64,000 nt of DNA from Phoronis australis. Lineage: Eukaryota > Animalia > Phoronida. Within the stretch, counting starts at the first letter, position 1. Each line of letters opens with the position of its first letter. The notes beneath the pieces were generated by a model that was given only the letters and a program-made list of their open reading frames with translations, did not search any database and was not told the origin of the DNA. The stretch is from the NCBI GenBank assembly GCA_002633005.1, contig NMRA01000515.1, positions 124,001-188,000 on the forward strand, in the 5' to 3' direction. Position numbers and translations under genes: made by a program. Positions 18,981 to 59,550 of the stretch are shown here, in pieces.

Positions 18981-20302
18981 TCTAGTTTCCAAACGTCATC
19001 AGAAATTAATAACTACTGCCCTACTAAGTTATATAGCCTGGTATCAAGAAATTATGAAATATAAGTTCTTACCAAGCCAAGAAAACACATCATAGTACTG
19101 CAATATGTGCTAACTTGATAGAATAATGTGGGTACCAGTGGAAAATGAATTCAATATATGACTTCTACAGCATGTTTAATCGGCCTAACCGCCATAGCCA
19201 GGGACAAAAACCTAATTTTCTAGACTTAAATAAGGGGCATCTGGAAGAGCTTCAACAATTTTGCATGTCTGAGATACGCGTGTGCTGGTCTCTGAAAAAC
19301 GTCCTTGATCACTAAAATGCACCCAATCTGAACACCACTTATTCCAAAGAACAAAAACTCTCCAGGTGATGTGGTCAGTGATCTTTGAATCAAATTTGGT
19401 TTGCTTGAAAGCATGTGTAAATACACTGAACTAGAATATTATGGTGACAGTCAGTACCAGCATTGTGGAAGAAATAAATAGCACGATATTTAGACATACT
19501 GAAGTTCAAATGTTGTCTCGTAACTAAGGCACCATTGATTATCCAAAACCAAACGAGATTCTGTTGCATAAAAAATTTTTGAATTCATAAAACATGTTTT
19601 AAAATTAAAAGTCAAACTGACACATCTATTTCATTTTACATTGAAATTCATAATAACAGTGTGCCAGACAGCTTTTCATAGCTTTGCATTAAACAGACCC
19701 TGTCGACACCCACTAACACAACACAAATAGCCTCACCAACTTTGTGCATGCTATTAAATGCTGCAATATGTAACTTGATCGAAAAAATCTTCATTATTAT
19801 TCTTGCAAAAATATAAAGACTCCTGGAAAACTGTCACATTGTTGTACTCCATTGCACCTAACTACAGGGATGATTGGCCCGAGTTAAGTAGTCATATTGT
19901 GTCAATGTATATTTCATGGCCCAATGATAGGGGGCGCTGTCCTAAATAAAATTTTCCTGTGACTTGCCATTTATGACAAACCAAACTATCTCATTTTCAA
20001 TCTGAATATGAAATTGACACACGCTTACAAATTATCCAAGGTCTTAAGTGTTTTGAGCTCAGTAAAACTATCCAGTACACAAATGCACACTACTTTCTCA
20101 ACACTGCAAAATTTTCCCCTATGTGAAGAACTTGATGTCACATTTCCGTGCATTCATTTGTGTTCTGTTCACATACACATGATTAGGGTGTTATCGTCTA
20201 TTCTGGATTACAATTTAACCAGACAGTGACTTAGACAACGCACCATAGAACTAGCATCTACATTCATGTGGTACTGTGGTTGCTTCACATTTGAGCACTT
20301 GC

Positions 20303-20632
20303 TCATAAATCATCATCAACCAATGACAAGTCACCTTCAGGTTGCATGTGTCTTTTCATGTCTGATATAGAGTCTAAATCAGAGTTGTCATCACTGAATG
20401 CCATTTCTCTGCTGAGAGTTGGGTAGCTGCGGTTACCTTGCTCACTATTGGCAGCTTCATCACTGTTTGATGGAACCAAAGCTTTAACTTCAGTCTGAAC
20501 ACTGTCGCCGCCAAGTGCTCCTCCCATAGAGGGGTAAGGAGGATTTTCAATTTTACATGGTTGTTCATCTGAGTTCTCCACAGGTCCTCCTCGTGGTGAA
20601 TGGTAAGCAGGTGGACTACTGTTCGTCCTTAT
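20303..20632 (-). CDS. terminal exon, low-complexity acidic tail containing PVENSD
   Basis: tttcag acceptor, 110 codons ending in TGA. Confidence 0.7.
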   Translation of the reverse strand: MRTNSSPPAYHSPRGGPVENSDEQPCKIENPPYPSMGGALGGDSVQTEVKALVPSNSDEAANSEQGNRSYPTLSREMAFSDDNSDLDSISDMKRHMQPEGDLSLVDDDL

Positions 20633-23600
20633 CTGAAACAGCAATTCACATGAAGTTTTTCTTCCTGCAGACTATGCCATCAACAAGTTCAGTGTTTGTT
20701 GGGATTGGATGCTATTTATTGAAACTCAGCCATAAGGATAAAAATTGTCACCAGTGACAGAACAAACTGTCACTGGTAACAATTTGAATAGGTTTTACTT
20801 TCCCTGCCTGCCCAAATTAATGCTTCAGCAACATGTAGTGCTGATACTATCGCTTATAAAATCATCCTCACAATAAAAAAGTCTGCAGAGTGAGGGTTTT
20901 TATATTGTTTTGCACTAGCTGGTGGTCAAAGATGATGTAAGGCCTTTGCAGTGGAGACATGCTGTGGCATAACTAGGAAACTCGATTGGAGAGTTGAATG
21001 TGTACTGAAATGTAACTGAGCCAATGTGTACTGTGTGTTTAACACATTTTAAACTTTTGAAATGGTCAAGGTAGCATCTGGTTTTAAATTGAACACAAAT
21101 ATTTTATTTGAATAGATTAAACATTTTTGCATGTTTTACCAAAGCAGGTTCTTTGTGATACAATCAAATTGAACTTTGTGAACAAAAACACACAACTAAA
21201 GGTTTACGGAGGGCATCAATGCTAAATGTTGGATTTTTGACTATATCGAAATTGTCTGGGCCTTTGGTTTTTCATGTGCATTTTTCTAAAAAATAAAATT
21301 GTTGGTTTTTGTTTTTATGAAAAGATGTAATCAATTTTGATCTAAATCAGGTATTTATTTTTGATCCTATTTCTGAAAATCTTAATCTATATCGGGCAAT
21401 ACATAGCACACATGAATAGTAAAAATATCCTTGAAATTTAAATTAACGTAAACTGCAAATCGGTCAATAATGACATCACTGTACTACGATATGCACCTTC
21501 ATCATAACAAACAACAGAACATACAGCCATATTAGTTTTGACTCAGAATACTCTTAAATCTTAGACAAAAAGCTCAAAGTGTTACATTAACTTTACAGAA
21601 ACATATTATGATAAATGTAAAACCCAAAACAAATGACCACTAAATTTGGTTAACTTCGGAACACCACATGTCAGAAATGGACGACTGGATTCATAGGAAA
21701 TTTTCATATGCTTCATGCACGGTTCTCCAAAAAGCAACAGGACTTGTTTTTAAATGTTTATTTTGGCATGAAGGATTAGTGCAAAACAGTATAAAAACCC
21801 TCACTCTGCAGACTTATGATTTTCACGGAGTTAAAATCTACAGTTTTGTAGATATTTGGCTAAATACACAGAGTTGTCAATATGGTCCTACATAAGGTCC
21901 TACATAAGGTCCTACATATGGTCCTACATATGGTCCTACATATGGTCCTACATAAGGTCCTACATATGGTCCTACATATGGTCCTTCATATGGTCCTACA
22001 TATGGTCCCGCATATGGTCCTACATAACCCCAGAGCTTTGCTATTAGAACTCTGGTATCTTAGTCACTATGTTCAGTAAACTCATAGCATTACACGCAGA
22101 TGTAAAGTTGATGTTGACAAACACCAGGTAGACCGCATGAACTTCAAATCTACTACATTCATAAGTTCATAGTGATGGCAGTCACTATAAATCGGACACA
22201 CTATTATCACCAATTTGAGTAAACGTGTCCATCAAAAGAACAAAAAAGTGAAAAAAAAACGATCAAATTTGTTAGGCAGCTCTTATCACTATCAGCTTAT
22301 TTGTAAGGGTGTGAAATTGCATTATTCGCAGAAAAAAAAAACCCTTATGGTATGCTCAGGAATTTTGATTGTCCAGTTTATCTGGCTATTCAGAATGGTC
22401 CATTACTATGAAAATGGGTTACGGACAGCATTGCATTTTCGTTTGATGTCGAACATACTGTACAAAGAAATGTTACACAATTTAAAAAGAGGCCTTTCTA
22501 CTTACCTTACATAATGTACAACAAGATCAATTAACTTTTGATCACAACATTTAAAATACTATAAGAACGAATGTTCATATCACTGACTTCATTAGAATAT
22601 ACGTAACGGAAAGTCACCTGTCAGAGTCATGGATGTTTTTGAAGCCACTAGCTTTTGGTTTCATCTCGAGGCCCGCCATTCCACCTGAAGAAGGTTTCAA
22701 GATGATACCGAGAGTTACTGGCTTCAAAAACTTTCACAACTTTGAAAGGTGACTTTCCATTACCCATTTAAAATACTCATTCTGTAATAAATTTTTCTAT
22801 TAGCCAGATTTGAAAAAAACTAAATTATCCAAATCAACCCTGTAGTTAAAATTCCAACCTTATGATCGTCAAGACTTTGAGCTTTTCCCATTCCACGTCT
22901 TTTTGGCACTGGAACAAAAAATTATTTAGTCCTTCAATGGAAGCAATATAACATTAAGTGAACAATGTATGACTTTAAGACTTAAGGCAGAAATTCCGTC
23001 TCCCTATTACTGAACAAAGTTTTTGCATTACTAATCATCAAAGTTTAGCAACATAACCTTGACTGTTAACTAATAGTTTTGGATGTTTTCAGAGACTTTG
23101 ACTTTGTTGAATTGAGATTTTCTTCCAAACATAGTGCCAAATAGTTGCGTGGAGTATTTGAGCATTTGACAAAATGTTTGACACATGTTTGATGTCAGTT
23201 TTCAGACTTCAAATCCACGAATGCTGCCACTAGGAATATCGGACATAGTAAACAATTTGCCTCCATGTGACTAACAAACAGTACATTTACGGTATGTACT
23301 TTCAGTTGATGTTAACCAAAATCAGTAGGTAGTCTGCCTTTTCCAAAATGTTTTTTGTGCCTACCCCAACTGTTGCATTCGAGCTTCTCAATTCAAATGC
23401 CTAGTAAGATGTCATTGACTTTTAATTATTATATGTGACATACGGTACTCGAAGAACCTGTTGATCAATAAGAGGTCTCTTATGAGTTTTATCTCTGGTG
23501 TTTTCTGCAATGGGCCCAACCATGAGACCTGCACACGTCTGATGCACTGCAAAAGACCTGCACTCGTTTTCATGGTACCCGAAAAAAGGAGACCATCAGA

Positions 23601-26600
23601 CAGTGTCATTTCTCATGCAACAGAATAACTATGTTTGGGGTATGGTGTTCCAATAGCTCTATGACTGTTGAGTTCATACCTTGAATGTAATTCGTCTTGA
23701 GTCACAAGTTGGGAAGCAGCATTGCATTACTGAGACTATTAAAACACCTAGCTGCTTGGACTGCATGATATGCACATCACTGCAAATGTACCAGTGCAAC
23801 ATTGCGCAATCCATCGTTATGTGATGAAGTGTAATTTGCTATTAGATTGATTTCCTTTTTCATGGTTTAAGTTAAACAATTAGGCGAAACACCAAAAGAA
23901 ATTACGTACCGCCTCTAGCATGTCTTTCAAGGTCTTGAATGATATCAATTCGATCCATTTGTTCCAGTATTAGGATGACCTCTGAAAATTGCCTTTTGGC
24001 AAAAGTCATCACCATATCTAAGACGATTGCTTTGGAAGGACTGTCACTTTTATCAAACTGGAGCTAAAATGAGATAAATTGTAGAAACCTGTACTCTAAC
24101 CTTTTAGTGGAAATGGTGAATAATTTATTCAACAAAACACTGCAGAATTTTTCTTCTCTTACACAATGTTGTTCTCTTTCAACAGTTATTAACCAAAAAG
24201 GAGTTTGGGTTCAGTTACTATTCAGAAGTTAAGCGACCACCTGTATCGGAGAACGGTGTCAGTTAACCATTGCAGCCCAAGTTAAACAGTATTGGATACA
24301 CATATAACGTGCTTTGGTTACCTTTGAAAAACATTTTGAAGTGACTTTGCCGAGTAACACATTAAACTGAACTTACAACATCATTTTGACTGTAATTTAG
24401 TTTACGAGCGAATGACAAGTGGTTTTTGCCTGGCAGAGTAGTTGGCCTTTCCAACCCCCTTATGAGATAGTCTCGCATGGTCTGGTCCATATCATACACC
24501 GTCTGCGGCCACATTGGATATGCTTCATAATTTGTGGGTCGTTGTTTCTGCGAAAACAATCAACGTACTTACACTGAAACTGATAGAACCTCTGTCAGTG
24601 GAAATATTCCATAAGCTACCTTGAACTTGACCTGTTAGAAGTTGCAAATTTCCCAAGTTGACATTGACTGGGTTAAAGCATTGCAACAAAGCATCCTATG
24701 TTTCTGTTTTACTAGCAATGGTTCATTATTTTGCATTAAGTAAGAGGACTGGAAAATACAATGTACTATATGAATACAAGGTAGCCAATGTCCCGTGCTA
24801 AAATTTCTGTAGGGGGCAGCACACTGGAGCATTTACGGTACCTACATGGAAGCGTGAAAATCAAGAATGAGTCAAAATTCAGGCAAATACAGTCTAATCT
24901 ATGGGCCAGTTAGGAGGACCTATTAGTCACATTTACTGTTTTCTGCATTATAACATATCACTTCATCTACTACCTCAGTTCCTAATGTTGCAATTATTGA
25001 TTGGTCTAAACCCAAACCCAGCATATAAATCCACAGTAGTTTCATGCACAATATGCTTGATCCTGGCATTAACGTTGTTGTTTTGTCATTAGCTTTGATC
25101 GGCTGCTGTGCATTTTCGTGTTAAAATTTGAATGCAATGGGTTATGCAAAACAACTTTTTATGTTCCTGTTAGCTTGAGTTAAGCAGTCACAGAGCACCA
25201 GTCAACATTAATTTTTCAAATTAAATAGTCTGTTATCTCATATGCGTTGAATCAGTCGAGTGCAATACGGCAACGTAATAATGTTTTCCGTATTCACCTA
25301 CCGCACTACTTCAACAGTGACCTCTGACATGGAAAGTTCAAAAGTTAGGTCAATGTCGACTCGACATCATTAGCCAGTCCGATCATCAAACTTTCCAAAA
25401 ATAGTTTAAAGTAATACAATTGCAACAGTGTAAATAACACATGCAATCAGGTCCCAAATGTAACATCTGGTACAAAACTGTTAATAATATGACACTTATG
25501 TCTCAGTTTTCGATTGTTAAATCTTATATCGTCTGCAACTCAGGTGCCGATTCCTTGGTAGGCCCCTAACTACAGTATCAAATATTGTTGTTATTTAACT
25601 ATTATCAGGAAAGGTTACAAGTTCAATGCACAATTACCATTGTTTTCATCTNCTACATGGAAGCGTGAAAATGAAGAATGAGTCAAAATTCAGGCAAATA
25701 CAGTCTAATCTATGGGCCAGTTAGGACCTATTAGTCACATTTACTGTTTTCTGCATTATAACATATCACTTCATCTACAGTCTAATCTATGGGCCAGTTA
25801 GGAGGACCTATTAGTCACATTTACTGTTTTCTGCATTATAACATATCACTTCATCTACAGTCTAATCTATGGGCCAGTTAGGAGGACCTATTAGTCACAT
25901 TTACTGTTTTCTGCATTATAACATATCACTTCATCTACTACCTCAGTTCCTAATGTTGCAATTATTGATTGGTCTAAACCCAAGCCAAGCATATAAATCC
26001 ACAGTAGTTTCATGCACAATATGCTTGACCCTGGCATTAACGTGGTTGTTTTGGTCATTGTCATTAGCTTTGATCGGCTGCTGTGCATTTTCGTGTTAAA
26101 ATTTGAATGCAATGGGTTATCCAAAACAACTTTTTATGTTCCTGTTAGCTTGAGTTAAGCAGTCACAGAGCACCAGTCAACATTAATTTTTCAAATTAAA
26201 TAGTCTGTTATCTCATATGCGTTGAATCAGTCGAGTGCAATACGGCAACGTAATAATGTTTTCCGTATTCACCTACCGCACTACTTCAACAGTGACCTCT
26301 GACATGGAAAGTTCAAAAGTTAGGTCAATGTCGACTCGACATCATTAGCCAGTCCGATCATCAAACTTTCCAAAAATAGTTTAAAGTAATACAATTGCAA
26401 CAGTGTAAATAACACATGCAATCAGGTCCCAAATGTAACATCTGGTACAAAACTGTTAATAATATGACACTTATGTCTCAGTTTTCGATTGTTAAATCTT
26501 ATATCGTCTGCAACTCAGGTGCCGATTCCTTGGTAGGCCCCTAACTACAGTATCAAATATTGTTGTTATTTAACTATTATCAGGAAAGGTTACAAGTTCA

Positions 26601-29600
26601 TTGCACAATTACCATTGTTTTCATCTTTGATATCTCTTTTCAAGTAAGAAATCGTTACATTTAAAACTGTTTCTTTTGCTAGAGAAAACTTGTAACCTAA
26701 CGCGCAAGTATATACATATGGGATATGATTCACCACGTTAACAGTCTGGGTGAAGTATTTAAAAAATCTGCCGAAAACGTGAAAGAAACTTAGGAAATCA
26801 AAGCGTGTGGGATAAACACAAGAAGTACCTCGATTCGCATAGATGAATTAATATCCCACTTGACATTATTCCACATATTGACCAAAGGTCAAGGTCGATA
26901 CGCGGAATAATGTGAAGTGGGACGTTAGTTCATCTACGCCACTCTCGGTACATTTTGTGTATTTATTTGAAATAAAAAATCACACTAAATTATTTTTAAG
27001 TTTATATTACAAAACAATGATTGCTTCACAACTCTTTAACAGACCTTAAAAAAAATTTACTCTCTGTTACTACCATGGTTTGAACACTTAACCATCAGCA
27101 AACAACATTTGGTAAAAAATTTTTGATTATTTACAGCAATGCAGTAAGACTTTGGAAAACAAAAATAATACAAATATTGTAATCTCCCCCAAAAACTGAA
27201 GAATTTTTACTGTTCAGTAATAACGTGAAATTGCTATGATAGTGACAGGGATTCAGGATTCACTTTTGCAAAATTGCAGGTCGCCTAATATAACCTCAGA
27301 TTTTGTTTGGTGACTGGTAACAATACCAGGCCACCATGCACTTATGTGAGTTCACACTCAAAATACTATGCGAGGTAAACAGTAAAACAGACTTAGCTGG
27401 AAGCGATCAGCAAAAATTGAAATCAACCGTTAATGAGTCATGCACAGGTAAGACAACCTGATATTGGGTGTATGCAGGGGAAACTGGTTGTTGCTGATCA
27501 TGCAAGACACTCCTAATATTACATTAGACTTAAATGCAGGTCATGGGCCATTTGTTCCTGCGTTCACCACCTTTGACTTCAGGTATCTTGTTTCATTTTT
27601 GGCTCTTGTTCTCGTTTGTAGTGACCAGAACTTTTGCAACCTCCCCATTCTTTGTTTTGCAAATCTCACTTCCGATTTGGCAAATCAACACCAGCTAGAT
27701 CCCAATATCATTTTTAAATGGCCACCCGTTATTTTTCAATTTCCAAATTTAAGAGCCCTGGGCATTAAGCAGTATGAATATGGTAAATAATCTACCTGTT
27801 GGGATTTTCCAGCAAAGACATGTTTGGTTTCCCTCTTAGTAGCTCTTCCGTTGTTATCCTTGACATAGCACAGCCTGAAAAGGCAGTCTCCGGCAAACAT
27901 AGCTCGATCTCTGAATTCTTTGAAGAATTCAACTCTGGCACATTTCGTGTAATAGCTTTCGTCCAACGTGGCATTGGCTTGCTCCAGTTTCTGTGTCTCG
28001 TGGTTGAGTTTTCCAAATTTAATTGCCAATGTTCCTGGCTCAGATAGTCCAGCCTGGAGCAGAAAAGAGCGGTGATCTTTAGGTAATCTCCAACAAAAGT
28101 GTTACAGAGTGTTCCAGTAAACATCAACCAAAATATACATGTGATCTTACAGCATTCTGATACCAAAATTCCAATTTTTCAAAATTAGCATACCCCCAGA
28201 TACTGCTTTCTCATTGTATACAGGCTCCTCCTGTTCACTCAACCCTTGACTGAGCTAAGCGGAATAAAAGATATTTTAATACTTAACTGCCAGAAAGTAA
28301 AGCCATGAATTGAATCCAGTTGGGATTCTGGAGGTCAAACCACTTACCTACACTGTGTTCACATAAATTTTCCAGTAATTTTAATTTACAATTTTGAAAT
28401 TCTGGATTCCAAAATATGGGAAGGCTGAGAAAGCAGTTTTAGAGGCGGCTCCACAATAATGTTCCATAGTTTTAACAAAGTGATTTACCTGCAAATAAAA
28501 TTCTCCCAGTTCCAATTTCTGAGTTGGGGGATTTAGTAGTATTAGCAAACAACCATCTTTAACTACTAAATTCTTGTCTATCTGCAAAAAACATGAACCA
28601 TCTTAGAATAAATCAAAATCAACAATCTAGAAATTACACATGATAAATACCCAACATTTCCAACACTTGACTAGTTATTGATCATCTGAATGTTGCAATC
28701 ACAACTGTGGAAAGGCCTTTTCGTACCAACTTAACTCTGGTTACTGAGGAGTAAACTGTAATCGCCCAGTGTTATTTCAGTTGTTTGAGGACAAATTGAA
28801 CATTTTTACAAATATTTCATGTAACATTGATCGAGAGAGACCCAGTTATTTTGTCTGATGTATGCGCATGCAAAGTTTCAATTTGACTACTAGCCCGGAG
28901 GTTATCATCAAGATAGGTTCAACATTAGTTACATGAAAGTAATTGTATGTCATGATGATACTGTTGATAAATTCAACAAAACTTACAAAAAACAACAACA
29001 TAAAGTGTAAATAGCTGCTAGCCTGTTTAAGCTTTGAGACACAAAATGACTCATCCGCAAAACAGTTTACAAGATAAAACAACTTCTTCAAAAGTTCCAA
29101 ATAAAAAATGCTAAAATTAATGTACAGCTGACCTATAAAATCATCCCAACCATGTAACACTGAACAATTATGGCAGCAGTGAGTATACCACTTATGCAGT
29201 TGTTGGACTGATAAGATGGAGTGCAGCCAGTCTATGAAACAGTTCAAAGTTACTGCTTTATCACATTCTAACTGACACACAGTGGTGGCAATTTTTGAAA
29301 ACCGAGACTCGCTTACCTTATTGAGTTTCTCCAGCAGTTTGGTAGTTTCCATAAGGTAGTTGATGTACAGCTTGTCGTTACCCTTGAATCGCTTCTTTTT
29401 TATTTCATGTAGGTCTGTTTTCAGGTGTGGAGCTTCATACCCAATTTTTTTCAAATGATTGCAGAATTCATCCTCCTAAAACAAAGTTATATGGATAACA
29501 GGAAGGAGAAAACAACAATACCTTCAGAAAAGGACACTTTGAACTTGAAACTTAGATGTTGCTTTATTTATTGCTGTATAGTTATGTTAAGTTATTGTTA

Positions 29601-36678: not shown

Positions 36679-37430
36679 CTTAATAAAGACAACTAAACCA
36701 ATGCTGCTAGTGGGAATTTCCCAATCGCGATTTTCCCGTCTCTATTCAATGACGTCCGGTCTCTCTCTCTTCAAATGACCTATTATTTTGTTCGATCAGC
36801 AAGTCACGTGCTCGGGCCGGAAAACTCAAGTTGGGGGAAAACCATCGTCATCGTATAACACCTGGCTTTGTATATTTATCACGGTTATTGCGCGGGTTTG
36901 ACTCATTAGATTTCAAAGAATTCCCTTAATAACTCGTGAGCTATGTTTTCACTTCTTTGCGATGTGTTTACTCAGAACTTGCACTTTGACCTCGTTTACT
37001 TCCTTGTAGTTGTATATCACATGTCGAGGATATCGGCCGGGGCTTACGGGACCGATTGCTGTACAGTCGAAGCTGTGCGCAAGAAGACGATAGCCGTGCT
37101 TTTTATAATATAACTCTTGAGTTAAAGGTTGAATTATTTAAAACAATCATCGATGACTAAGGAGTGTCTATTATACCATAAACCCAGTACATTCTCACTG
37201 TCTATGATCCAGTTGTTTTAAAAACATGCTAAGGGACCGTCAAATACACCCTGCAGTGCAGGATGTGCCGTTGCCGTTGCAGGCTGCACCCAAATAAACC
37301 GCAACGTCACCATTCGTTGTTGCTTTTGGGTGTGTCTGATTACTTCTGCACTGAGTCAGACTTGTTAGTCGGATCTCTGCTGTGGCTATCAAGTAATAAA
37401 ATACTGAATGGTTTCAGTTTCAGTTTGGCT
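36679..37430. promoter_or_regulatory. putative bidirectional promoter/5' region with kB, CRE, E-box and ISRE-like motifs
   Basis: Between divergent ATGs and CpG-enriched. GGGAATTTCCC 36712-36722, TGACGTC 36750-36756, CACGTG near 36805, GGGGAAAACC 36834-36843, GTTTCAGTTTCAGTTT 37411-37426. Confidence 0.55.
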
Positions 37431-37595
37431 ATGATGACTTCAACAGAACAGGTTCAGCTGGCTGCTTCCTTGGATCTTCTGCGAGCAGAGACTACCAATC
37501 GACACCTATGCTTGTTCCTTGGCGAGCAGCTGTCAGCAACACCACAGAAAGATTTGAAAGGACTCATAGATCTTCTTAGAACCACGCCAACCACG
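37431..37595 (+). CDS. coding exon 1, start of SIR2-like domain (HLCLFLGEQLS)
   Basis: ATG at 37431, donor GTATGA at 37596; resembles the SIR2_2 LxLFxGAGxS motif. Confidence 0.7.
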
Positions 37596-49500: not shown

Positions 49501-52500
49501 TAAAAAGTCATACACGTCTCACTTTTTGAGTATCAATGGTCCAGAGGTGTTGAGGAAACGACGAATCATTGAGAGGAGTTTGACCCAAGCTTGGGACCAT
49601 GAGAGAACTGTGTTTGAGTTGACTGTTGCTGTATTAAGGGAAAACAAGCTGATTAATGCACTGTCGGTAAGTAGGAGCTGGCAGGGCTGGATTATGATAG
49701 GAGTCTCTGGCGGTTCTGAACCCTCCTGCTGAGTTGCTTTTGTTTTTCTGTATGGGAAGAATATGATGTACTTGTGTTTGTCCATTGTCAATTAACCCTC
49801 CTCTACTTAATGTCAACACTGCTACAACCAAGTCATGTTTACCATTGTGTATTGTGACGTGATCCTGATGTGCGAAAGTTGCCATATTGTATAATGTGTT
49901 ATTCTTGTCAATGAATTTATGACCAAAAATTATCAAAAGAAGGAACAATTAAGGATTACTGCTATTTTTAACTATTTGTTTTTAATGCTGAAATGCTGAC
50001 CCCATTCCCTAGTTAATGTTTACTTATTTAATGGTTTGTGTGAGGTGTATGTATTAGAGGTGTTTGTATAAGGTGTATGTTGATATCTACATTTTACAGT
50101 TACTTGCAATGCCTTAAATTATGGAATAAAAAAGTCAAGGTTCACACAGTAAGGCATACAACATTTTGAAAGTTTGTGTTTTTGTAGACGCGTGATCGCC
50201 AGTGCCTTGAGTCACTGCAGAGTGTTCAAGTTCTGTCAGAGATGAACTTGATAACTGGGAGTTTTGAGAGGATCAGTGAAGGTAGTTTTGGAGAAGTATT
50301 CAAGGCCAAGTGGAGCAAAAATGGTGTCATCAAGAATGTTGCTGTGAAAATCTTGAAAAACATCAGCTCAGTTGTTGACCTTGACAACTACCGCAGGGAA
50401 TATGAAAGTATGAGGTGAGCTTGAAGTCCTGTAAAAATTGTTGCTGCAGTTGCCAATATCCTGAGGTCTTCTAGCTATAACCTCACTCCATGATCTCAAA
50501 ACTTGCAATAAGATCAAAACCCTTTCTGCTCAGCAACTTCTAGTGTTATGACCTCTATACCCAATACGACACATCATTCTTAGACAAAACATTTCATATT
50601 TCAATCGCAGTAGGTTCACGACTGTCCAGCAGTCACACCTAGACCGACACATTGCTCAAGTTGATTGTCTCGCAATGATATCACGGGATGATTCAGGATT
50701 GTCTATTATAGAATGAGTTGCAGTCTCTTACTAGCCTGATCTTAAAGATATTAGTCTTTCAGGTTTACAATAATGATTGTTTAACCTTTAACTAGAGTCA
50801 TGTGATATTAATTAGATGTAGACTTGTTGCTGCTATTTGCTCTGACCCACAAAACGTTGCTTCCTTCATGATTCTCATGTAAACAATATATTGTTCAAAA
50901 CTGTTCACCCTATATCTGAAGCATCAACAGATAACATAACAAGTAGTACATAACAATTGTTTCATAGTGTGAGATCCATACAGCTCTTCACAGTTGAGCA
51001 TGTTGCATGCGTTTTACTTTCACCCCTAAGTCATCTTCAAAGTTTTCAAAATTCATTTTAGTAAAGCCAAGCATCCGAATATTGTGGAAGTGTACGAGCC
51101 TTACAGAAAGAGCAACCAACTGGGATTGATCATGGAGTTCATGGAGGGAGGTAGTATTCGAGACGTGATCAATAAGAACCCTGGCGTGGGTCTGTCCAGA
51201 GAGTTCACCTACCGATGTGCACACCAGGTGGCGTTAGCTCTAGCATTTCTTCATCAGCAGCAAATTTGGCACAGAGACATCAAGGTGGACAACATATTCG
51301 TAAGTGGATCGGTTCTGTTGTGGAGGCTGGTTAAGGTTACCATACTAGCACGGAAAAGTGTATGTAGGAAATTTCAAATACTTTGGCTGTTTTTAAGGGC
51401 CATATTACTAGATGATGGTCGTTTCATGCCAATTTTAGCACCCATCATTGCAGTATGCTTTGCTTCACATTAATCTCCATTTCAAATACCATCTTTAATA
51501 CATGACATTAACCAGCAATACCTTACTTTTGTCTTCAGTCAAACACACGATATGAGTGATCTGAGTGGTTAATCATTTTGATTTTTGTAAAGTGTTCTTC
51601 AATTTAACACACAGCGTGTCAGATGAATGGAATTTTATTTTGTCAAGTTTATCAACAAACACCTGAAGTGTTTTTCTTCAATTTATTGTGCTTTGTTGTG
51701 TATAGCTATCATAAAACAAAATGAAAAATTGCAGTTTTGACAACTATTTCTGGGAAATTGAGAGGTTACTGTTACAATACTATTTCCTCGTCTATAATTG
51801 ATTTGATAATGGCAGTATGTATGACACACACCTAATGCCTTGACATAACATGAGTAGACGCTCGAAAGTACAAGTGGAAAAAGCAAAATACAAATAGAAG
51901 TCGTATGGGTGCTGGATGTTCAGTTTGCATTTTTTCATCGCCTCTTTTTTGCAGCCCAAATTCAGAAATATGAGGGGACATTTTTGTCTGTGTTGAACGC
52001 TGTTCTAATGTGTTAAAATTTAAATACATTTTATGTTCATATTAGATTTTCTCCTGCTTTGCAGCTTTCAGGGGACCATCAGACTGTGAAGATCGGTGAC
52101 TTTGGTCTGGCAAAGCTGAAGGCCAACACACGTAACACCAACACACAGGACGTGGGCTCCTATCGTTATATGGCACCAGAGGTCGCTAGTGGCACAGCTA
52201 TGGGCAAATATTCTGCTAAAGCTGACGTATACAGCTATGGTAAATTGTGAAACAATGATTCATTTAATAAATGAATCTGGTTGTTTCTGGTGTAAGTTTT
52301 GATAGCTATCAAATCTTTATTTTGGTCTGCTAAGTCAGCTAAAACAGAGATTCAAGTTAGGCCATTAACTCTCATAATATTCCTTAGTATGATAGGATTT
52401 TATTTCTATTATCAACAAGAATATCGAGACCATCAGCGACTTAAGAAAACTCATCAGAGTTTATTGTGGAAGGCCAACCCTAAAGCTGGGAATTTGAGAA

Positions 52501-55500
52501 TTGCGCACATTGACTGTGGGTTAAGCTGCCGGCTCCTTTGGGAACAATTCAATCATTGGTAAATGTAGCAATCTTGCAAAATGCCCCAGGATGCTGAATA
52601 TCATTATAGCAAAATCAAAAGTTTACACAAAAGGCATACAGGTAAAATTTGTTTGCTTTTCCTGGCTTCTTTTGTTATTGGTAGTTTCTGCGACATTACA
52701 AATGTTGGTAGAAAACAAAAATGTTGGTGATCTTTATTCATTAACTTTACTTGTGCACTCAAAGTTGTTTGTTTATTTTCTGTCATAAATATGTTGAGTT
52801 CTTCAAATGAAGTCTAGTTCTCAACTTGTTCCATACTCAGATTAGAACTACATTGGGAACAATTGACAGTTTGTTATTGCTTGTGGTCATACTTGGCAAA
52901 TAAAATGACCCACTGGAGACCATAAACCATTCCTTATTTAGTTAGGGACAATTTGAGACTAATTTTATAGTTGTAAGTGACATTTGCTCAGCCAGACAAA
53001 GGGGGTCTAACAGTCATGGAAGGGGGTTGGAATGAATGACTACTTGGCGCACTTTGCAAAATTGAAATGGGTTTCGACTGTGGTAGGGCTTTTTTGCTAT
53101 TGCCCCCCTCCATTGTACCCCCTGTGGCTACATCAATGGTAAATGATCTAAATCAAAAGTTGAGATTTGAAATTGGCGTATACCTGTAATCTTGTTGTTT
53201 CTTATTATCGTTGATCAGTTTCTGTTTATAAAATTACATGAAATGCAGTTTCCAGTATACCTGAAAATCAGGTTTTATGTCTTTCGTGTCGAGGAACATT
53301 GAGATAGACTGGACCCCAAGTTTCAAAAACAATGGTCACTATAACCGTAGTGCCTGTCGTTAACTGTTGTTTATGCCCATGAGGAATGAATAAACCTCTC
53401 ATTAATCATAGACCCTCCACTAGTTGCTATTTCCAATGTGAATGTATTCATTTTGTGACATCATAGGTGGTGCAGTGAGTGAAATGAACAAAACTTTTTT
53501 AGTAACTTGTTCAATGTGTCAAATTGGAATTTCTCTGGAGGTTCTTACATTTTTGACAGTAAACTAATGAATCACCTTTGGATTTTAAGAAAAAAATTAC
53601 AGCTATAATGTTGGAAAATGTGCAGCTATCACTGTCTATAAGTCATATCAGGAGACATGAGTCGTGATGCAGTTTTCAAAATGACCCTTTGCTATGTTTT
53701 CCAGGTTTGATGTTGGCTGAGATTATGATGGGTAACCTTGTATTTAGTAACATTCCCATCCACCAGGAGGTCTACAAACTCAAAGTATCTGCTGACTTGC
53801 CAGTCCTGTTGCCAGTATGTAACTCTTTCATTGATATTGACTTCTCAGTGACTGTTTCTGGTTTTGTAGTGTGACCTTCTCAGTAAAGGACTGCTTTCTA
53901 GCATTGTCTTCAAAATAAATCTGCACTATTGCACATTTGCATTATGGTTGTATGGGGGGGACGGCAGATGAAATAAAAATTTATGGGTGGTTGTCTTCTG
54001 AAAGAAATTTAAATTATAGGTGGTCTTTCTTGAAAGAAGTAAAATATTGTTGGTTGGTGTTTTTCGTCCTGTAAATGTTGGTAGGTGGGTATTTTTGGCC
54101 AAGCACCGACCTCCGACCTTAATACCTCTGAAAAAACTCCAAAACTCACCACAAATTCACTTGACAGATATCCAAAAACAGCAGAAACAAGCCAAGGTGC
54201 TACTGTAGTTTACACTGCAATATCAGAGATGTGTTAAATGATTCTTGGCAATATGTACACTGTGCCATTACTCAAGTCATGGGCAACTTAATTACAGGCA
54301 ATGTTGTACAGTCATTTTAGAGTGAAAATTACTGACACCAAGACTAAATTGGTGTTAACACATTCAAAAAAATTCTCTCTGATGAATTTTTTAATAAAAA
54401 GTATGTGGAGTCAGATAGACAAGCTCCAATATTCACTTGGCAAACCAGTCTAAAAGCATTCGTGGAATCACTTTGAGATTCGTAGATTCATGAAATTGAA
54501 AAAATCTTATTGAAATTACAGACGCCTGGTAGACAGAGACACCTGGTGGCTGCCTAATGTATTGTTCACAGTTGTCTTTAAAAAGCAAGTTTCTGGTAAC
54601 TGACATGAGTTGTGATCTCACATAGCATTTTTTGCACAATTTAAAAAATATTGGTGGTTGCATTTCAACTTAATTAAAAATTATGGGTAGTGGTTAAAGA
54701 AATAAAAGAAAAATATGGGGAGTTGATAAAAAATGAATGTGCTTTCCCCACCCCCGTCTCCCATATGTTTTGTACTGGAACAGCCCTTATTATAAACTTC
54801 AGTTGTCAATATTTAAAGAATGACAAGAACTTTAAAATAGCATAACCGTATAAGTTACAATCGTATGAACAATGTGACATCATTGGTTCTTTGCAGGAGC
54901 ATAGTGAAGAGCATTATGGTGCCCTGATGTGTAACATTGTGAAATATTGTGTGCAGCGTAACCCTCAGTTCAGACTCGCCATACAGCAAGTTTTGAACAT
55001 GTTAGACAAAGGTCAAGATGAGGTCACCGCACGCTACACGCCCTCCACTGGGCTCTATCTGCTATGTCTAGGTACTGGTAAAGGAGCCACAGGTATGGAG
55101 AGGTTCTGAAATGAGTTAGTTGATTAAGATTGGTTGAAAAAATGTTGACTATTATGAAAACGTTGATTCATACTTACAAAATATGGGTATCAGCTAGACT
55201 TTGGAGGACTATAAACCTGAAACAATACTGGTGTGGGCAGAGTTTTAATTGATACATTCTGTTACATAGTATTGTGCAATAGATTGACATTATTTATTTT
55301 TTATTATTATTACTCCAGAATGTGAAATTAATTGTTAACTTACTAAGTATAGCAATATTTCTGTTGCTCTTGAGGAATGCGTCTGGAACCATGCCGTTAT
55401 TTATTCATCTTAATTCTGTTTTCTGTTTAGCTGTGATTCACAATGAACCTAGTTCATCCTTTGTCATACTGAACAACGGGCATCCACTGCTTCTGGTTGA

Positions 55501-58500
55501 CATGGGACTGGGTGTTTTATACTCCTACAGAAATTTTCTGGGTGAGTAGGTGACTTTCTTTGCGCTCAAGTGAATGTTTTCCCAGTATGTGAAGCTGTCG
55601 TAACTTGATAGATGTTTTGACTTATCCAGCTACTCCAGAAGTAGAGAGTTTAACTTTGGCGTACCTTTGTTAAATTTGTTCATAGTCATTCAAAATAGCT
55701 TGATATAGCTGTTTGTTGTTCATCATGTGGTGTAAATGAACATCATGGCAACAAGGAGTTTGTGATAGATGTGTTACTTTATTTTTACAAAATTTAAATT
55801 CGGTAAGGCATTTAAGTTGGTATTACAGAATACACAAGTTTCTTTGTCAAAGTTGTTGGACTCCAGTGTGGTCAATATAACAGTTAAAATTCAAATCATC
55901 ATCTTTGACCGTGGTACATGGCCAAAGTCTGCGCAGTCTTTGACAATGATTGTGGAAAAATTTAATAGGTCTATCTAGAAAATTTTTGTTTATTGCCAAT
56001 GCCTTCAGGATGATTATGGAAAAAGTTAAAAAAATTACGAATTGCGACTTGTAAAATCTTATCTTGTTTCAATTGTAAAAAATTCAAAAACAACAAAAAA
56101 TTGTGAAAACATGGGTTCAACAGTTTCATTGTTTGTTTGTTCTGATGCATTTATTCAGGTGACACACTGCCAAAGAACATCTTCTTAACTCATAACCACT
56201 CTGACCACACTGGGGATCTGCCTGTCTTCTTTGGTGTCCTGGCTCCTAAGCTGTTGGAGCTACCCAAGAAAGCATTGAATATTATTGCTGCACCTGAAGT
56301 AATGACTCGCGTGAAGAACTACAGGATGCATGAAATTGTCTCCCATGTCACTACTCTAGCCAATCAGCATTCAGTTGTAAGTACCGTAATATAAGATGGC
56401 AATGAAAAACTGATCGGTTTTCAGCTGTTATTTTAAAATTTAGAAAACAACTCTTTCAAGTACTGGTTGTAATTGATTAGAGTTAATTGGTATTTATTTG
56501 TTTGGTATTGATAACACAAATTTGATTGTCATGTATTAATATTGTGTTGTGTTGTATCAATACATACTCACATAAAGTTGTGCCATCATAGGATCCTTTA
56601 GCCAACTGGGTAAGCACAAAGCCAGACTTTTCCCAGTACACCTACTTGGATGAAAAGAAAGAATTTGCAATAAAGACACTTCAAAGTCAACACTCAGAGA
56701 CTTGTTTTGGTGAGCTATTAAATTGCTCATTTTGTTCTCTTAATTGTGTGTACAGCTCAGGATTTGGTCAGGGGTAGTCTGTTATACCCTATGTCGGCTC
56801 CAGCAGTCATTGTAGTTTCATGGCTTTGAGTCCCTTTGTAAGAAGACAAATGAACAATAGAAGATGTTTAATGATGTCCTACTATTTGACATTCTTTGCT
56901 ATCATTAGATAGGTTAGACTGAATAATCAAACTAGAACTAGCTTAATATTTACTGTGAGTCTCAAAGTGAGTTGGTCAACTTTCACGTCAGGGAGACCAC
57001 ATGATCATTTGCCATATCCTTATTTCCTTGCTGCAATCTGATCTGTTTTTCACACATTTGAAAACTTCTGTGTTAGTTACTTTTGTGAAAAGGTTAAATT
57101 ACGTATTACTGTCATTGAATTTTGATACAACAGTCCTTCAAAGTAATGTTTATGTTTTTTATGCGCAAATAAGTTGGTGCAATAATTGAGAGCTGAGAAC
57201 GCACTCATTATTGTGAAAAACATTAGCAATGAACACCACCTGCCTAAACATTATGAAAAGTGGTTAGTAAGTGTTACCTCACATCACACAGTTTTCCCAA
57301 TTTCCAGGCTTTGTTTTGTACCACAATGAACATCCTGTCCTTGGCTACTCAGCTGACTCAGGATTCAACAGTCACTTGTATGAGACTGTTTATCAAGCTG
57401 ACCTGGTGATAGTTGATGCTCGTCTGTCCTCTTCTTATGAACATGCCAGTGTAAGTGTCAGCAGTTTTACACTACCCACAATGCACTGAATTTGTATTCT
57501 TTGGTAATATTCATCATGTCAACTTAAGTCAACTGGTCTGTTGTATTGCAGCCATTGATTGGATTACTGACAGTTTTTATATATCACAATACTGTCTTGA
57601 TTGTAGATGATGAGAATAGTAGTTTTGCACTGCATAAACAATGCATTTTACAGACTGGTATCATGATTGACTGTTCCTAATACTAACTGTAATTTTGTGA
57701 AATCAAGCTGTTGTTTGTTATATTTTATGGAATTTTAATAGCACAAGAAATCACCATTCTAAGGTTTTGTGTAGTAATACTAAATTGTAGCAAATCAACT
57801 GCCATAATACTAAATTGTAGCAAATCAACTGCCATAATACTAAATTGTAGCAAATCAACTGCTATAATACTAAATTGTAGCAAATCAACTGCCATAATAC
57901 TAAATTGTAGCAAATCAACTGCCATAANATGCACTGAATTTGTATTCTTTGGTAATATTCATCATGTCAACTTAAGTCAACTGGTCTGTTGTATTGCAGC
58001 CATTGATTGGATTACTGACAGTTGTCTATTTTTTATATATCACAAAACTGTCTTGATTGCAGATGATGAGAATAGTAGTTTTGCACTGCATAAACAATGC
58101 ATTTTACAGACTGGTATCATGATTGACAGTTCCTAATACTAACTGTAATTTTGTGAAATCAAGCTGTTGTTTGTTATATTTTATGGAATTTTAAGAAATC
58201 ACCATTCTAAGGTTTTGTGTAGTAATACTAAATTGTAGCAAATCAACTGCCATAATACTAAATTGTAGCAAATCAACTGCCATAAATGAGGTAGACACAT
58301 CTTACCACTTCATTTTCCAAATTTCAATCACAACAACAAACATTAATATTTGTAAGTGAGTAGCACAATCATTCACTCTCTCATGTGGCAGGCAAATTGT
58401 GGAACTGATTTTAAAGTGATATTTAATTTTAGTCAAAACTTAGTGTTCATACCAACTTAAAATGAACATTAATCATGATTGTTTTTGGCTTTTGAATATT

Positions 58501-59550
58501 GATTTCTTTTCCTCTAATCATGGTGGTAAAACTGCTTTTTGATAAACTATTTTGCTTTTTTCAGTTTGTCGAGGTACAAAAGTTCAGCCAGGTTAAACAG
58601 GTGAGAAGATTGAAAATCCCAGTCCCCACGTCAAAAAAAAAAAAAAAATATTCAAAGTAAAAAGTTTTCATGGCATTCATTTTGAAAATCTTATTGTTTA
58701 CAGTCATTTTAGTGCTTCAAACCAAACACACCAGAATACACACACATAATAAATCTATGAGCTTACAGATGGGAGGTTCTTTATAGAATTCATAATAGCG
58801 TTGTCATGGCAACAATTCCTATATGTCTACCAAGCATCTGCTGAAGCAGCTGAAAACTCATCTTCCATCACAAAAGCAGATTTTGATTTAGACCACTTAC
58901 CTTGAATTGGTCTCAAATTGTCATGTAGTCAAATTGGAGATCATGTCAAAGCTTCAAAGATCGTCAGACCAGACTCTTTAAGTTGAATTGTCACGGCATG
59001 TCATTTTATGCACTGCCCATTGTCTCGCAGAATAACTGTCAGTTCTTTGCAAATTCTGAAATCTTTTCTCGTTTGAATAAGAAACTAGTTGTGACCAATG
59101 TAAAAGTTGTCATCCTGAACGGCACATGGGTTTATAGCTGTTTTAATGCTTACTTTATGAAATGATTATTTTTGTGCAACTTTGCAGTTTGAATACATTT
59201 TTTTAACTTGTATTTAGCAATTAGTAGCTATCTCACTACCACCAAGTAAAGGAAAGTTTCCTTAGAAAGTGGTAACAAATGCATTCTTTGACTTACGCTG
59301 ATGTAAATTGCATAACCGTTTCATGTTTTAGCATTTCATTTCCTTTTTTCTGCTATGAAATGTTGTTGTTGGTTTCTAGCACAAGAACGTGTACGTGATT
59401 GGATATGGTACTGAAAGTGAAGCGCCTTCTTCAGCCGACTATCCAGAACTGAATGTCTTAGAGACTGGGTCCTTCTATGCACTTGACACTAAACCTCACC
59501 ATCCTTTGGACACCTCTGATCAATACCCATCACTAGAGAGGGCAGTGTGA
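37431..59550 (+). CDS. 20-exon gene, 1071 aa: degenerate SIR2-like + DUF5753-like + Ser/Thr kinase + MBL-fold metallo-hydrolase fusion
   Basis: Exons 37431-37595, 38547-38732, 42241-42327, 43529-43690, 44526-44681, 44970-45156, 46002-46075, 48058-48301, 49455-49666, 50188-50414, 51062-51299, 52065-52239, 53705-53814, 54897-55092, 55431-55541, 56159-56376, 56592-56709, 57308-57450, 58565-58600, 59380-59550. All introns are GT-AG and phase-compatible; total 3216 nt = 1071 aa + TGA. The kinase C-terminus and MBL N-terminus share exon 54897-55092. The exon 5 donor is the least certain. Confidence 0.85.
38547..38732 (+). CDS. exon 2, SIR2-like (VILTVCVDQFIE)
   Basis: ttacag acceptor, GTGAGT donor; matches the IITTNYDxLIE motif with N replaced by C. 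Confidence 0.8.
39422..41575. mobile_element. non-autonomous CCGTA-ended Tc1/mariner-pogo-type transposon in intron 2
   Basis: TIR CCGTATTCGCCCTAATAAG and CTTATTAGGGCGAATACCG (1 mismatch), TA flanks. Confidence 0.75.
40793..41554 (-). mobile_element. solo LTR, 762 bp
   Basis: TGTCA...TGACA termini, 5-bp TSD CGCTT, TATA-like and AATAAA signals on the minus strand. Confidence 0.8.
42241..42327 (+). CDS. exon 3, SIR2-like (LLIKCLGD)
   Basis: ttttcag acceptor, phase 0-0; matches the LxKLHGD motif with H replaced by L. Confidence 0.75.
43529..43690 (+). CDS. exon 4, SIR2-like (DLFQKYTVLFFGIQRDDP)
   Basis: ttgcag acceptor, GTAAGT donor; matches the LFxxxTLLFIGYSxxDP motif. Confidence 0.85.
44526..44681 (+). 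CDS. exon 5, end of SIR2-like domain (RQHFLFECG...)
   Basis: strong polypyrimidine tract plus tag acceptor; phase 0 donor aag|gtgctg is weak. Confidence 0.65.
44970..45156 (+). CDS. exon 6, start of DUF5753-like domain (LYLEQQSVEIGIQTVKITNALCTDE)
   Basis: ttttag acceptor, GTATGT donor, ends phase 1. Confidence 0.8.
45661..45777. repeat. 39-bp tandem repeat, 3 copies
   Basis: unit TAGATTTATAAAGACACTAGTCACTTACAGGGGTACTAT. Confidence 0.9.
46002..46075 (+). CDS. exon 7 (GRWDDSTVDKVMTAMVKRRNNLLK)
   Basis: tttgtag acceptor, GTAAGT donor; phase 1 to 0 bridges exons 6 and 8. Confidence 0.75.
48058..48301 (+). CDS. exon 8, DUF5753-like core
   Basis: tttcag acceptor, GTAGGA donor; KVTAVFSFQAF...YNLWLRAIP...KFGIFRL. 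Confidence 0.8.
49455..49666 (+). CDS. exon 9, end of DUF5753-like domain (IAYAE...NGPEVLRKRRIIERSLTQAWDHERT)
   Basis: phase 1 to 0, GTAAGT donor; aag acceptor after a pyrimidine tract. Confidence 0.75.
50188..50414 (+). CDS. exon 10, kinase subdomains I-III (ISEGSFGEVF, VAVK, REYE)
   Basis: tttgtag acceptor, GTGAGC donor; canonical kinase N-lobe motifs. Confidence 0.92.
51062..51299 (+). CDS. exon 11, kinase IV-VIb (HPNIV, MEFMEGG, HRDIKVDN)
   Basis: phase 2 to 0, GTAAGT donor; intact catalytic loop. Confidence 0.95.
52065..52239 (+). CDS. exon 12, kinase VII-IX (DFG, YMAPE, DVYSYG)
   Basis: ttgcag acceptor, GTAAAT donor. Confidence 0.95.
53705..53814 (+). CDS. exon 13, kinase IX-X (LMLAEIMMG)
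   Basis: ttccag acceptor, GTATGT donor, phase 1 to 0. Confidence 0.88.
54897..55092 (+). CDS. exon 14, kinase XI (CVQRNPQFR) fused to MBL start (LLCLGTG)
   Basis: ttgcag acceptor, GTATGG donor; both domains in one exon and one frame. Confidence 0.9.
55431..55541 (+). CDS. exon 15, MBL motif I (SSSFVIL...LLVDMGLG)
   Basis: tttag acceptor, GTGAGT donor, phase 1-1. Confidence 0.9.
56159..56376 (+). CDS. exon 16, MBL motif II (IFLTHNHSDHTGDL)
   Basis: ttcag acceptor, GTAAGT donor; HxHxDH motif. Confidence 0.93.
56592..56709 (+). CDS. exon 17, MBL motif III (SQHSETCFG)
   Basis: catag acceptor, GTGAGC donor, phase 0 to 1. Confidence 0.85.
57308..57450 (+). CDS. exon 18, MBL motif IV (LGYSADSG, ADLVIVDA, EHAS)
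   Basis: ttccag acceptor, GTAAGT donor. Confidence 0.9.
57775..57924. repeat. 30-bp tandem repeat, 5 copies, inside a duplication 57481-58284 joined at an N (57928)
   Basis: unit TAATACTAAATTGTAGCAAATCAACTGCCA. Confidence 0.9.
58565..58600 (+). CDS. exon 19 (FVEVQKFSQVKQ), 36 nt
   Basis: long T tract plus cag acceptor, GTGAGA donor, phase 0-0; supplies the helix expected after the H-A-S motif. Confidence 0.7.
59380..59550 (+). CDS. terminal exon 20 (HKNVYVIGYG...LERAV*)
   Basis: ttctag acceptor, TGA at 59548-59550; AATAAA candidates near 61039 and 61052. Confidence 0.8.
   Translation, partial: HKNVYVIGYGTESEAPSSADYPELNVLETGSFYALDTKPHHPLDTSDQYPSLERAV

Follow-up and report, generated by a model that had tools for sequence, protein, structure and literature searches.

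The 64,000-nucleotide stretch of the Phoronis australis genome considered here (contig NMRA01000515.1, positions 124,001 to 188,000; henceforth the window) carries two spliced genes that are transcribed away from each other, and the gene on the plus strand, not the head-to-head pair, is the finding worth following. Its predicted product of 1,086 amino acids (aa) fuses relatives of two bacterial genes that are neighbours in a rare cluster around an intact protein kinase, a reading that is well supported by sequence comparison. One of those bacterial genes encodes a protein of ~550 aa, here called SIR2-X, in which a SIR2 domain is joined to a DUF5753/PLD-fold domain; the other encodes a hydrolase whose fold is that of a metallo-beta-lactamase (MBL). 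To our knowledge, each of the bacterial defence genes known from animals (cGAS-STING, SIRim/FAM118, viperin, gasdermin) is a matter of a single domain. In the present protein a pair of genes that are separate members of one bacterial cluster has been kept together, and their joint survival there is independent evidence that both bacterial genes work together.

The plus gene and its four domains

The DNA of the window is AT-rich, of animal type, and contains spliceosomal introns. The plus gene and the domains predicted in its product are the following.

37431..59550, plus strand: plus gene, 21 predicted coding exons, 1,086 aa; 20 of 20 introns GT..AG, single open frame
Plus strand, exons 1 to 11: 37431-37595, 38547-38732, 42073-42117, 42241-42327, 43529-43690, 44526-44681, 44970-45156, 46002-46075, 48058-48301, 49455-49666, 50188-50414
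Plus strand, exons 12 to 21: 51062-51299, 52065-52239, 53705-53814, 54897-55092, 55431-55541, 56159-56376, 56592-56709, 57308-57450, 58565-58600, 59380-59550
37431..44681, plus strand: SIR2-like (SIRim-type) domain, aa ~20-255; catalytic motifs replaced
44640..49666, plus strand: DUF5753-like/PLD-fold domain, aa ~260-490; lacks the HKD motif (no HxKxxxxD)
50188..55030, plus strand: Ser/Thr protein kinase, aa ~528-795; Pfam Pkinase E 1.6e-18 and 2.6e-11 (single exons)
55050..59460, plus strand: MBL-fold metallo-hydrolase (Apyc1/YhfI/RNase Z group), aa ~809-1055

Exons 1 and 2 are transcribed. The RNA evidence, here and below, comes from stranded RNA-seq (three runs) and a set of contigs, all labelled as the same species, and covers positions 19900-39899; the bin that holds the first plus-gene coding exon (37242-37908) is read only in the direction opposite to that of the minus gene, the values for the two directions being 0/4.7, 0/2.58, and 0/4.08. 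Past exon 2 the junctions are predicted from splice signals, reading frame, and homology, and the order of the exons is collinear with the bacterial homologues. We consider it very probable that a single transcript runs through all 21 exons. Three other possible exons (46650, 47604, and 47780) were set aside because the bacterial alignment continues without a break from 46075 to 48058.

The SIR2 part of the animal protein is, by its motifs, a pseudo-sirtuin that has lost its catalytic positions: it reads GEQL, TVCVD, KCLGD, and GIQ, and the NAD-binding and catalytic GxGxS, the Asn of TxNYD, the His of KxHG, and GxS are not kept. A single exon of this part scores 18.5 bits (E 0.0023) against Pfam SIR2_2, below the cut-off of 24.5, and a hidden Markov model (HMM) of the bacterial SIR2 part gives 26 bits (E 7e-8). 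About 40 residues of helical insert present in the four bacterial proteins compared are missing. In FAM118B, N163 and H206 are named as catalytic or candidate catalytic residues (PMC12700824), and they would correspond to the SIR2 motif positions examined.

The DUF5753-like domain is recognized by an HMM of the bacterial C-terminal domain at 49-51 bits (best of 500 shuffles, 3.9). Residues invariant in the animal and the four bacterial proteins comprise R..YL..Q...E, TN, M..R, AYA, H, and N, and their retention would fit a conserved binding role. Pfam DUF5753 (PF19054) itself gave no sequence match, either to three full-length bacterial SIR2-X proteins at E 0.1 or to single animal exons.

The kinase, judged from its sequence, is eukaryote-like and has the motifs of an active enzyme intact: Gly loop, VAVK, HRD, DFG, and APE are all present, at aa 536, 557, 652, 673, and 698, and the best matches of single kinase exons in the PDB are PAK/NEK1 for one and RAF for another. 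The metal ligands of the MBL domain are likewise intact (HNHSDH at aa 870, the H in SQHSE, the D in SADS, and the H in EHAS) and invariant across six bacterial relatives, an HMM of which scores the animal domain at 226 bits. Both MBL proteins of a Thermoanaerobaculia locus share 42% identity with the animal MBL, and the other bacterial ones 29-35%. The fusion of kinase and MBL is visible in the DNA, in that one exon (54897-55092) contains the last part of the kinase together with the first MBL strand.

The four domain calls that an earlier note had made on this gene from its letters thus stand, those of SIR2-like and DUF5753-like domains through the bacterial homologues and those of kinase and MBL through Pfam Pkinase, the motifs, and the MBL HMM. 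The further suggestion that both genes of the locus carry degenerate domains holds for the lost motifs of the plus-gene SIR2 part and fails for the kinase and MBL, whose motifs are complete. The link that the note drew to nucleotide-messenger defence families proved stronger than claimed, since the SIR2 and MBL parts correspond to neighbours in bacteria.

The bacterial relatives and the origin of the fusion

When prokaryotic genomes were searched with the MBL metal-motif exon alone, eight loci were returned, four of them matching at 34-37% over most of the exon, and three of these four also encode a ~550-aa match to the other end of the plus-gene protein (E 6e-12 to 2e-7, among 208 open reading frames [ORFs] of the loci). 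A further search, by MBL alignment, returned 31 loci, with six genomes close, and added the Thermoanaerobaculia locus (L014). An HMM of four bacterial SIR2-X proteins scores aa 71-488 of the plus protein at 74.3 bits (best of 500 shuffles, 0.7), with pairwise identities of 20-24% over ~470 columns; applied to the unspliced DNA, the same HMM matches four segments collinearly, two of them at E < 1e-4 among 2,179. On this comparison the N-terminal ~490 aa of the plus protein are homologous to SIR2-X along their length. The bacterial gene orders are these.

L001 (Poseidonocella) and L003: SIR2-X, macro, convergent MBL
L004: macro, SIR2-X, convergent MBL
L014 (Thermoanaerobaculia, Acidobacteriota): MBL, MBL, convergent SIR2-X; L047 is apparently the same contig
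L046: SIR2-X, macro, on a truncated metagenome contig

SIR2-X is adjacent to the MBL gene, or one gene away, in four of the six genomes with the MBL subfamily, and always tail-to-tail; a ThsA_Macro gene above the Pfam cut-off accompanies it in L001, L003, L004, and L046, that is, in four of five SIR2-X loci. Both families are rare in bacteria. Full-length SIR2-X was found in one of 401 Acidobacteriota, the seed itself, together with one further SIR2-only match, and the MBL subfamily in one of 401 Pseudomonadota, again the seed. Plasmids, phages, and viral contigs yielded no member of the MBL subfamily, and plasmids no full-length SIR2-X. No adjacent TIR ThsB was seen in ~20 kb around the Poseidonocella cluster (PADLOC, 30 ORFs); the other contigs span 3-5 kb, too short to exclude one.

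The bacterial SIR2-X proteins score above the Pfam SIR2_2 cut-off, and GxGxS, TxNYD, and GxS are present in all four; as His motif, one has KVHGD and the other three have KLNGD. In an AlphaFold model of L004 SIR2-X (predicted local distance difference test [pLDDT] 65), the SIR2 domain is predicted to fold like FAM118B, KomC, ThsA, and Avs5 (Z 12-14; 12.7-14.3 for FAM118B, KomC, and ThsA), and the C-terminal domain would lie nearest, at middling Z, to the PLD-fold proteins NucT (6.9), FAM83B (6.7), and TrmBL2 (6.4). An Atlas structure search placed the bacterial C-terminal domain at template-modelling (TM) scores of 0.70-0.77 to DUF5753 and XRE-associated clusters, the DUF5753 clusters, at 0.70-0.73, satisfying the Atlas naming bar. 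The best solved relatives of the MBL subfamily profile are Apyc1 (7T28, E 7.8e-12), BA1088, and RNase Z, 7T28 being identified as Apyc1 (PMC9117128). Family scores were not reached: the L004 MBL scores 17.1 bits against Pfam Apyc1 (cut-off 50), and the subfamily scores 31-38 bits against the NCBIfam cyclic-nucleotide phosphodiesterase model (cut-off 400).

Around these loci we also observed a second MBL-kinase neighbourhood, in Chloroflexota, where the MBL gene directly follows a gene for a 1,109-aa kinase-ATPase-TPR-like protein (L013:4554-8699); a SIR2-domain gene among three kinase genes in a metagenome (L051:4036-12330); a TPR-CHAT protease gene and a pair of genes for an extracytoplasmic function (ECF) sigma factor and its anti-sigma, a few kb from MBL-MBL-SIR2X (L014:267-5352); and, in Granulosicoccaceae, a frameshifted MBL gene, divided close to the end of its contig (L015:7168-7885). 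On plasmids, SIR2-domain relatives (hits H4-H6 and H12-H13) adjoin non-canonical purine NTP pyrophosphatases, an arrangement that we take to be a Kongming-like layout.

In a 25-row tree, which left out the frameshifted L015 MBL and carried a long-branch warning at the clade root, the animal MBL falls inside a bacterial clade of six members (99/97), where its sister group is the Acidobacteriota pair (96/93). The shape is the same in a tree of 13 rows from which the long ones are absent, and the approximately unbiased (AU) test rejects a bacteria-only clade, a group named after the first tree had been seen, at p 0.027. Contamination is excluded because the plus gene has 20 introns. We think it likely that the plus gene came from bacteria by transfer and subsequently gained introns and an inserted kinase. 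The alternative is an old eukaryotic family, from which bacteria obtained their copies or which descends vertically from a common ancestor. Only six bacterial genomes and one eukaryote bear on the matter, and 20 introns imply long residence, as this alternative would have it; against it, the bacterial genes are separate, are spread across three phyla, and keep more of the SIR2 motifs, and the bacterial MBL proteins are paraphyletic to the animal one. We regard it as quite unlikely.

Proposed function and rival explanations

The best explanation we can offer, and one that we hold to be evenly poised between right and wrong, is that the plus gene encodes a nucleotide-signal switch built from relatives of the two bacterial-cluster genes around a kinase. 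In the bacteria, a trigger acting on the DUF5753-like domain of SIR2-X would lead this protein to make or release a signal of the ADP-ribose (ADPR) type, with the membrane macro protein as effector and the separately transcribed MBL as eraser of the signal. In type II Thoeris, a TIR enzyme makes His-ADPR, which is bound by the macro domain of a membrane effector (10.64898/2025.12.03.692087). By analogy, the bacterial cluster may be a Thoeris-II-like anti-phage system with SIR2 in place of TIR, a macro effector, and an MBL that clears the signal, a suggestion we rate just short of an even chance. In the animal, the pseudo-SIR2/PLD-fold half may sense a ligand or oligomerise and so control the kinase, which would be the output, and the MBL would hydrolyse the signal as an off-switch. 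We read the animal protein as a sensor or scaffold joined to a kinase and a hydrolase because the macro effector is absent from the window (no macro-domain relative was found in it), the sirtuin appears dead, and the kinase lies between the two halves. It is plausible, if still on the doubtful side, that the protein serves immune or stress signalling by such a switch.

Several observations weigh against this reading. SIR2-X was not found in two of the six MBL genomes (Chloroflexota and Granulosicoccaceae), nor a ThsA macro gene in the Thermoanaerobaculia genome, and any of these assemblies may be incomplete. PADLOC matched none of 30 flanking ORFs in Poseidonocella and two of 12 in Thermoanaerobaculia, both generic; the filter that chose these ORFs was crude and passed over some genes. 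Synthesis of a signal by SIR2-X is uncertain because the sirtuin His is Asn in three of the four bacterial proteins. The group put to the AU test was chosen with the first tree in view, and the MBL trees, with a single eukaryote, do not settle the direction or date of transfer. Lastly, read-through of the donor at 49666 (49667-49732) meets a stop 21 codons on, at about the length of bacterial SIR2-X, and a short isoform consisting of SIR2-X only is possible.

That read-through is the principal argument for dividing the plus locus into two genes or isoforms, a SIR2-X ending after 49666 and a separate kinase-MBL, and the read data, which end at 39899, are compatible with such a division. Yet the donor is a strong GTAAGT followed, across an intron of 521 bp, by an in-frame AG acceptor at 50188; no CpG-rich promoter was noted in that intron and no separate start exon for the kinase; and the two products would still be neighbours, as they are in bacteria. 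We consider the division most improbable. A metabolic role has more to commend it, although we hold it to be rather unlikely: the MBL would be a kinase-controlled phosphodiesterase of cyclic nucleotides or RNA, SIR2-X a decayed scaffold, and the bacterial cluster a matter of NAD/ADPR housekeeping or stress. The cluster lacks defence-island neighbours, the named relatives of the MBL include YhfI-type and RNase Z enzymes, and expression is constitutive across the three RNA runs. This view must contend with a SIR2 domain of the immune (SIRim) structural type, with a macro gene of the ThsA type, and with a rare, patchy spread across distant phyla, which is typical of defence genes.

The earlier note had favoured a co-regulated innate-immune module in which a STING-like/death-domain receptor or adaptor, the product of the minus gene, is paired with the kinase-hydrolase of the plus gene. 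Divergent transcription out of one short region, an exact kB palindrome close to the start of the minus gene, a probable death fold in the minus protein, and the descent of the plus gene from defence-type families all speak for such a module. Nevertheless, we find it unlikely: the minus model is without a transmembrane segment, and the hydrophobic ORF that might supply one (36590-36480) is almost without reads; the plus protein has no death domain for pairing; the bacterial clusters (51 loci) hold no relative of the minus protein; the IRF-like motif is accounted for as a probable splice acceptor; and CpG-island bidirectional promoters are frequent in animals. A more ambitious version starts from a captured Thoeris-like system (SIR2-DUF5753-like signal enzyme, membrane macro effector, MBL signal eraser) that exchanged its killing effector for a kinase within a single polypeptide and was wired by a shared NF-kB-responsive promoter to a death-domain adaptor with a STING-derived domain; it would amount to a new innate-immune pathway with a nucleotide messenger and is, in our estimation, very unlikely.

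The switch we propose has partial counterparts among known systems. Eukaryotic SIRim proteins (FAM118B/SIRal) resemble the plus gene as anti-phage-type SIR2 proteins of animals, probably of bacterial origin and with fused domains (bioRxiv 10.1101/2024.09.18.613514; PMC12700824); the plus gene differs in that its catalytic Asn and His positions are replaced and that it is fused to DUF5753/PLD-fold, kinase, and MBL domains. The main text of the SIRim preprint (10.1101/2024.09.18.613514) mentions neither 'kinase' nor 'lactamase', and its supplementary table may list the family. Like type II Thoeris (TIR ThsB with the membrane-Macro ThsA), the bacterial cluster contains ThsA_Macro at four of five SIR2-X loci, but it has the SIR2-DUF5753-like gene and a convergent MBL where the TIR ThsB would be expected. 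The animal and bacterial MBL proteins share fold and HxHxDH with the class II phosphodiesterases Apyc1/YhfI (PMC9117128), yet they form a separate subfamily that is host-encoded and, in the animal, kinase-fused, and their hydrolysis of cyclic nucleotides is only putative. Kongming KomC, type I Thoeris ThsA, DSR2, and Avs5 are the closest solved folds to the bacterial SIR2 domain; among the hits seen, they have neither a DUF5753-like C-terminal domain nor an MBL partner. The actinobacterial XRE-DUF5753 regulators have the same fold as the SIR2-X C-terminal domain, SIR2-X carrying SIR2 in place of their helix-turn-helix.

We found no literature on SIR2 with DUF5753, on Thoeris defence by SIR2 with macrodomain and MBL, or on the architecture of the plus gene in titles and the beginnings of abstracts, a survey that covered few subscription papers, and the rare bacterial SIR2-X/macro/MBL cluster is apparently undescribed. 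The animal gene thus points to a bacterial system in which a ThsA-type macro protein is paired with SIR2 instead of TIR and with a candidate signal-degrading enzyme. It raises three questions: can the signal that a macro effector needs come from a sirtuin, what is the ligand of the DUF5753/PLD-fold domain, and did animals convert a cell-killing circuit into kinase signalling?

The minus gene, the shared promoter region, and the remainder of the window

The second gene of the locus has its ATG at 36678 on the minus strand and its stop at 20303; the ATG and stop of the plus gene are at 37431 and 59550.

20303..36678, minus strand: minus gene, 8 predicted coding exons, 427 aa; all introns GT..AG, open frame
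Minus strand, exons: 36678-36610, 29475-29317, 28581-28489, 28053-27796, 24547-24377, 24063-23910, 22908-22859, 20632-20303
19941..20302, minus strand: 3' untranslated region of the minus gene, reaching at least 19941 (contig 19941-20276, one-direction reads)
27796..29475, minus strand: N-terminal alpha/beta-like region, aa 24-193, the part the earlier note called STING-like
23910..24547, minus strand: probable death-fold domain, aa ~215-300; helical pattern only

The RNA evidence shows two real genes with divergent transcription. In the three runs the reads over minus-gene exons lie almost wholly in one direction, with bin values of 9.0/0.4, 5.6/0, and 7.8/0 at 19900-20566; 5.43/0, 5.49/0, and 3.76/0 at 23902-24568; and 3.7/0, 2.5/0, and 3.5/0 at 27904-28570. 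Among the joints listed, where the highly expressed repeat at 30600-32400 dominates, the intron 28054-28488 is found in all four RNA sets (9, 5, and 12 reads and one contig). An RNA contig connects 23910-24058 with 20283-20632, and the 50 letters between them match an AG..GT exon of 50 nt (22908-22859); an alternative exon of 67 nt (22684-22618) was dropped, frame and contig gap favouring the shorter one. The join of exon 1 to exon 2 is predicted. Depth per 10 million reads was 16.3, 12.9, and 15.3 for the minus gene and 3.7, 2.3, and 3.7 for the plus gene, three points being too few for co-expression. The earlier note's claim of two divergent spliced genes with ATGs at 36678 and 37431 is thus borne out by GT..AG introns in open frames and by strand-specific RNA-seq. 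Of the gene models that it proposed to check in this way, the strands, plus exons 1 and 2, one minus intron, and one contig path are observed, and the other joins are predicted.

Residues ~215-300 of the minus protein, with FARKL, SPSKA, and ILEQMDRIDII, resemble a death-domain pattern in our reading, the usual tryptophans being absent. Neither half-domain exon (57 and 51 aa) matched Pfam Death or the PDB at E up to 10, a weak test with such short queries, and Pfam Death was not found in 101 Bacteroidota genomes. A death fold nonetheless seems to us probable. A STING ancestry for the region before it seems to us rather unlikely. Within aa 56-170 a few short motifs look to us, by eye and not as a test, like STING. 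Single exons of the region matched nothing in Pfam, the PDB, the Atlas, or 1.84 billion representatives, all weak tests; HMMER on those representatives returned one tandem-repeat artefact only, and word-indexed protein searches with single exons gave no animal homologue. The largest minus exon led, in the Atlas feature search, to phage hypothetical clusters at a recognition value below the tool's bar, and the fold predicted from a single exon has pLDDT 43. An HMM of 11 bacterial STING sequences scored the spliced minus region no better than 628 of 1,000 shuffles, and this HMM also misses every animal STING in the PDB. No transmembrane segment occurs in the 427-aa model, in which the exon 1-2 join is predicted (top 19-residue hydropathy 1.05). 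The hydrophobic candidate exon at 36590-36480 has almost no reads (bin depth 0.06-0.13), and intron 1 holds no strong additional exon. Compared with metazoan STING (TMEM173) and TIR-STING, the model of the minus protein lacks a transmembrane or TIR region, and its STING-like region is shorter and continues into a probable death fold. The idea that it supplies the missing ThsA-type macro domain was rejected, as 971 of 2,000 shuffles score as high, and none of the 51 bacterial loci encodes a relative of it. We think it likely that the product of the minus gene is a soluble adaptor with a death fold and that its tie to the plus gene goes no further than a common bidirectional CpG-island promoter.

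36400..37200, no strand: CpG-island bidirectional promoter region; starts inferred near 36750 (minus) and 37010-37040 (plus)
37037..37127, plus strand: inferred non-coding first exon of the plus gene; 37127 is the only AG|GT donor within 36760-37415
36712..36722, both strands: palindromic kB-type site, ~35 bp upstream of the minus ATG
37412..37421, minus strand: IRF-like GAAANNGAAA motif, overlapping the probable splice acceptor 37416-37417 of the first plus coding exon

The ratio of observed to expected CpG is 1.08-1.25 at 36601-37200 and 0.54 for the window, and bin 36575-37241 is read in both directions. The RNA contig that covers the first coding exon of the plus gene has 91 letters ahead of 37416; together with the plus-direction reads in 36575-37241, these letters make an upstream non-coding exon likely and would put the two transcription starts ~300 bp apart. 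The earlier note had pointed to kB- and IRF-like motifs between the genes. The kB palindrome is present; the pattern matches three times in the window against 2.5 expected, and we roughly estimate the chance of a match within the 750-bp gap at ~0.03. The IRF-like pattern (16 matches in the window against 5.9 expected) coincides here with the probable splice acceptor. CpG-island bidirectional promoters are common in animals, and the shared region is probably an ordinary one; the head-to-head immune module is unproven. The note's comparison with paired NLR sensor/executor loci applies, for those of plants, to the head-to-head arrangement with a short shared promoter and does not extend to the proteins, since neither gene model contains NB-ARC/NACHT or repeats and the two have no common interaction domain.

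Elsewhere in the window, 124 flanking ORFs gave no credible Pfam match. The dispersed repeat at 30600-32400, in intron 1 of the minus gene, has one-direction RNA depth of 600-1,200 in all three runs, and a similar-looking element lies at ~9280-10170. The last intron of the minus gene contains a tandem array of a 12-bp repeat (21860-22060). Near-identical duplicated segments at 24900-26620 and 57480-58290 flank single Ns at 25652 and 57928 and are probably assembly overlaps or local tandem duplications. Two more CpG-rich stretches, at 4000-4900 and 61700-62500, may be promoters of neighbouring genes, and an ORF at 14006-14338 on the minus strand, with a signal-peptide-like hydrophobic start followed by a lysine-rich segment, may be an exon of a secreted protein.

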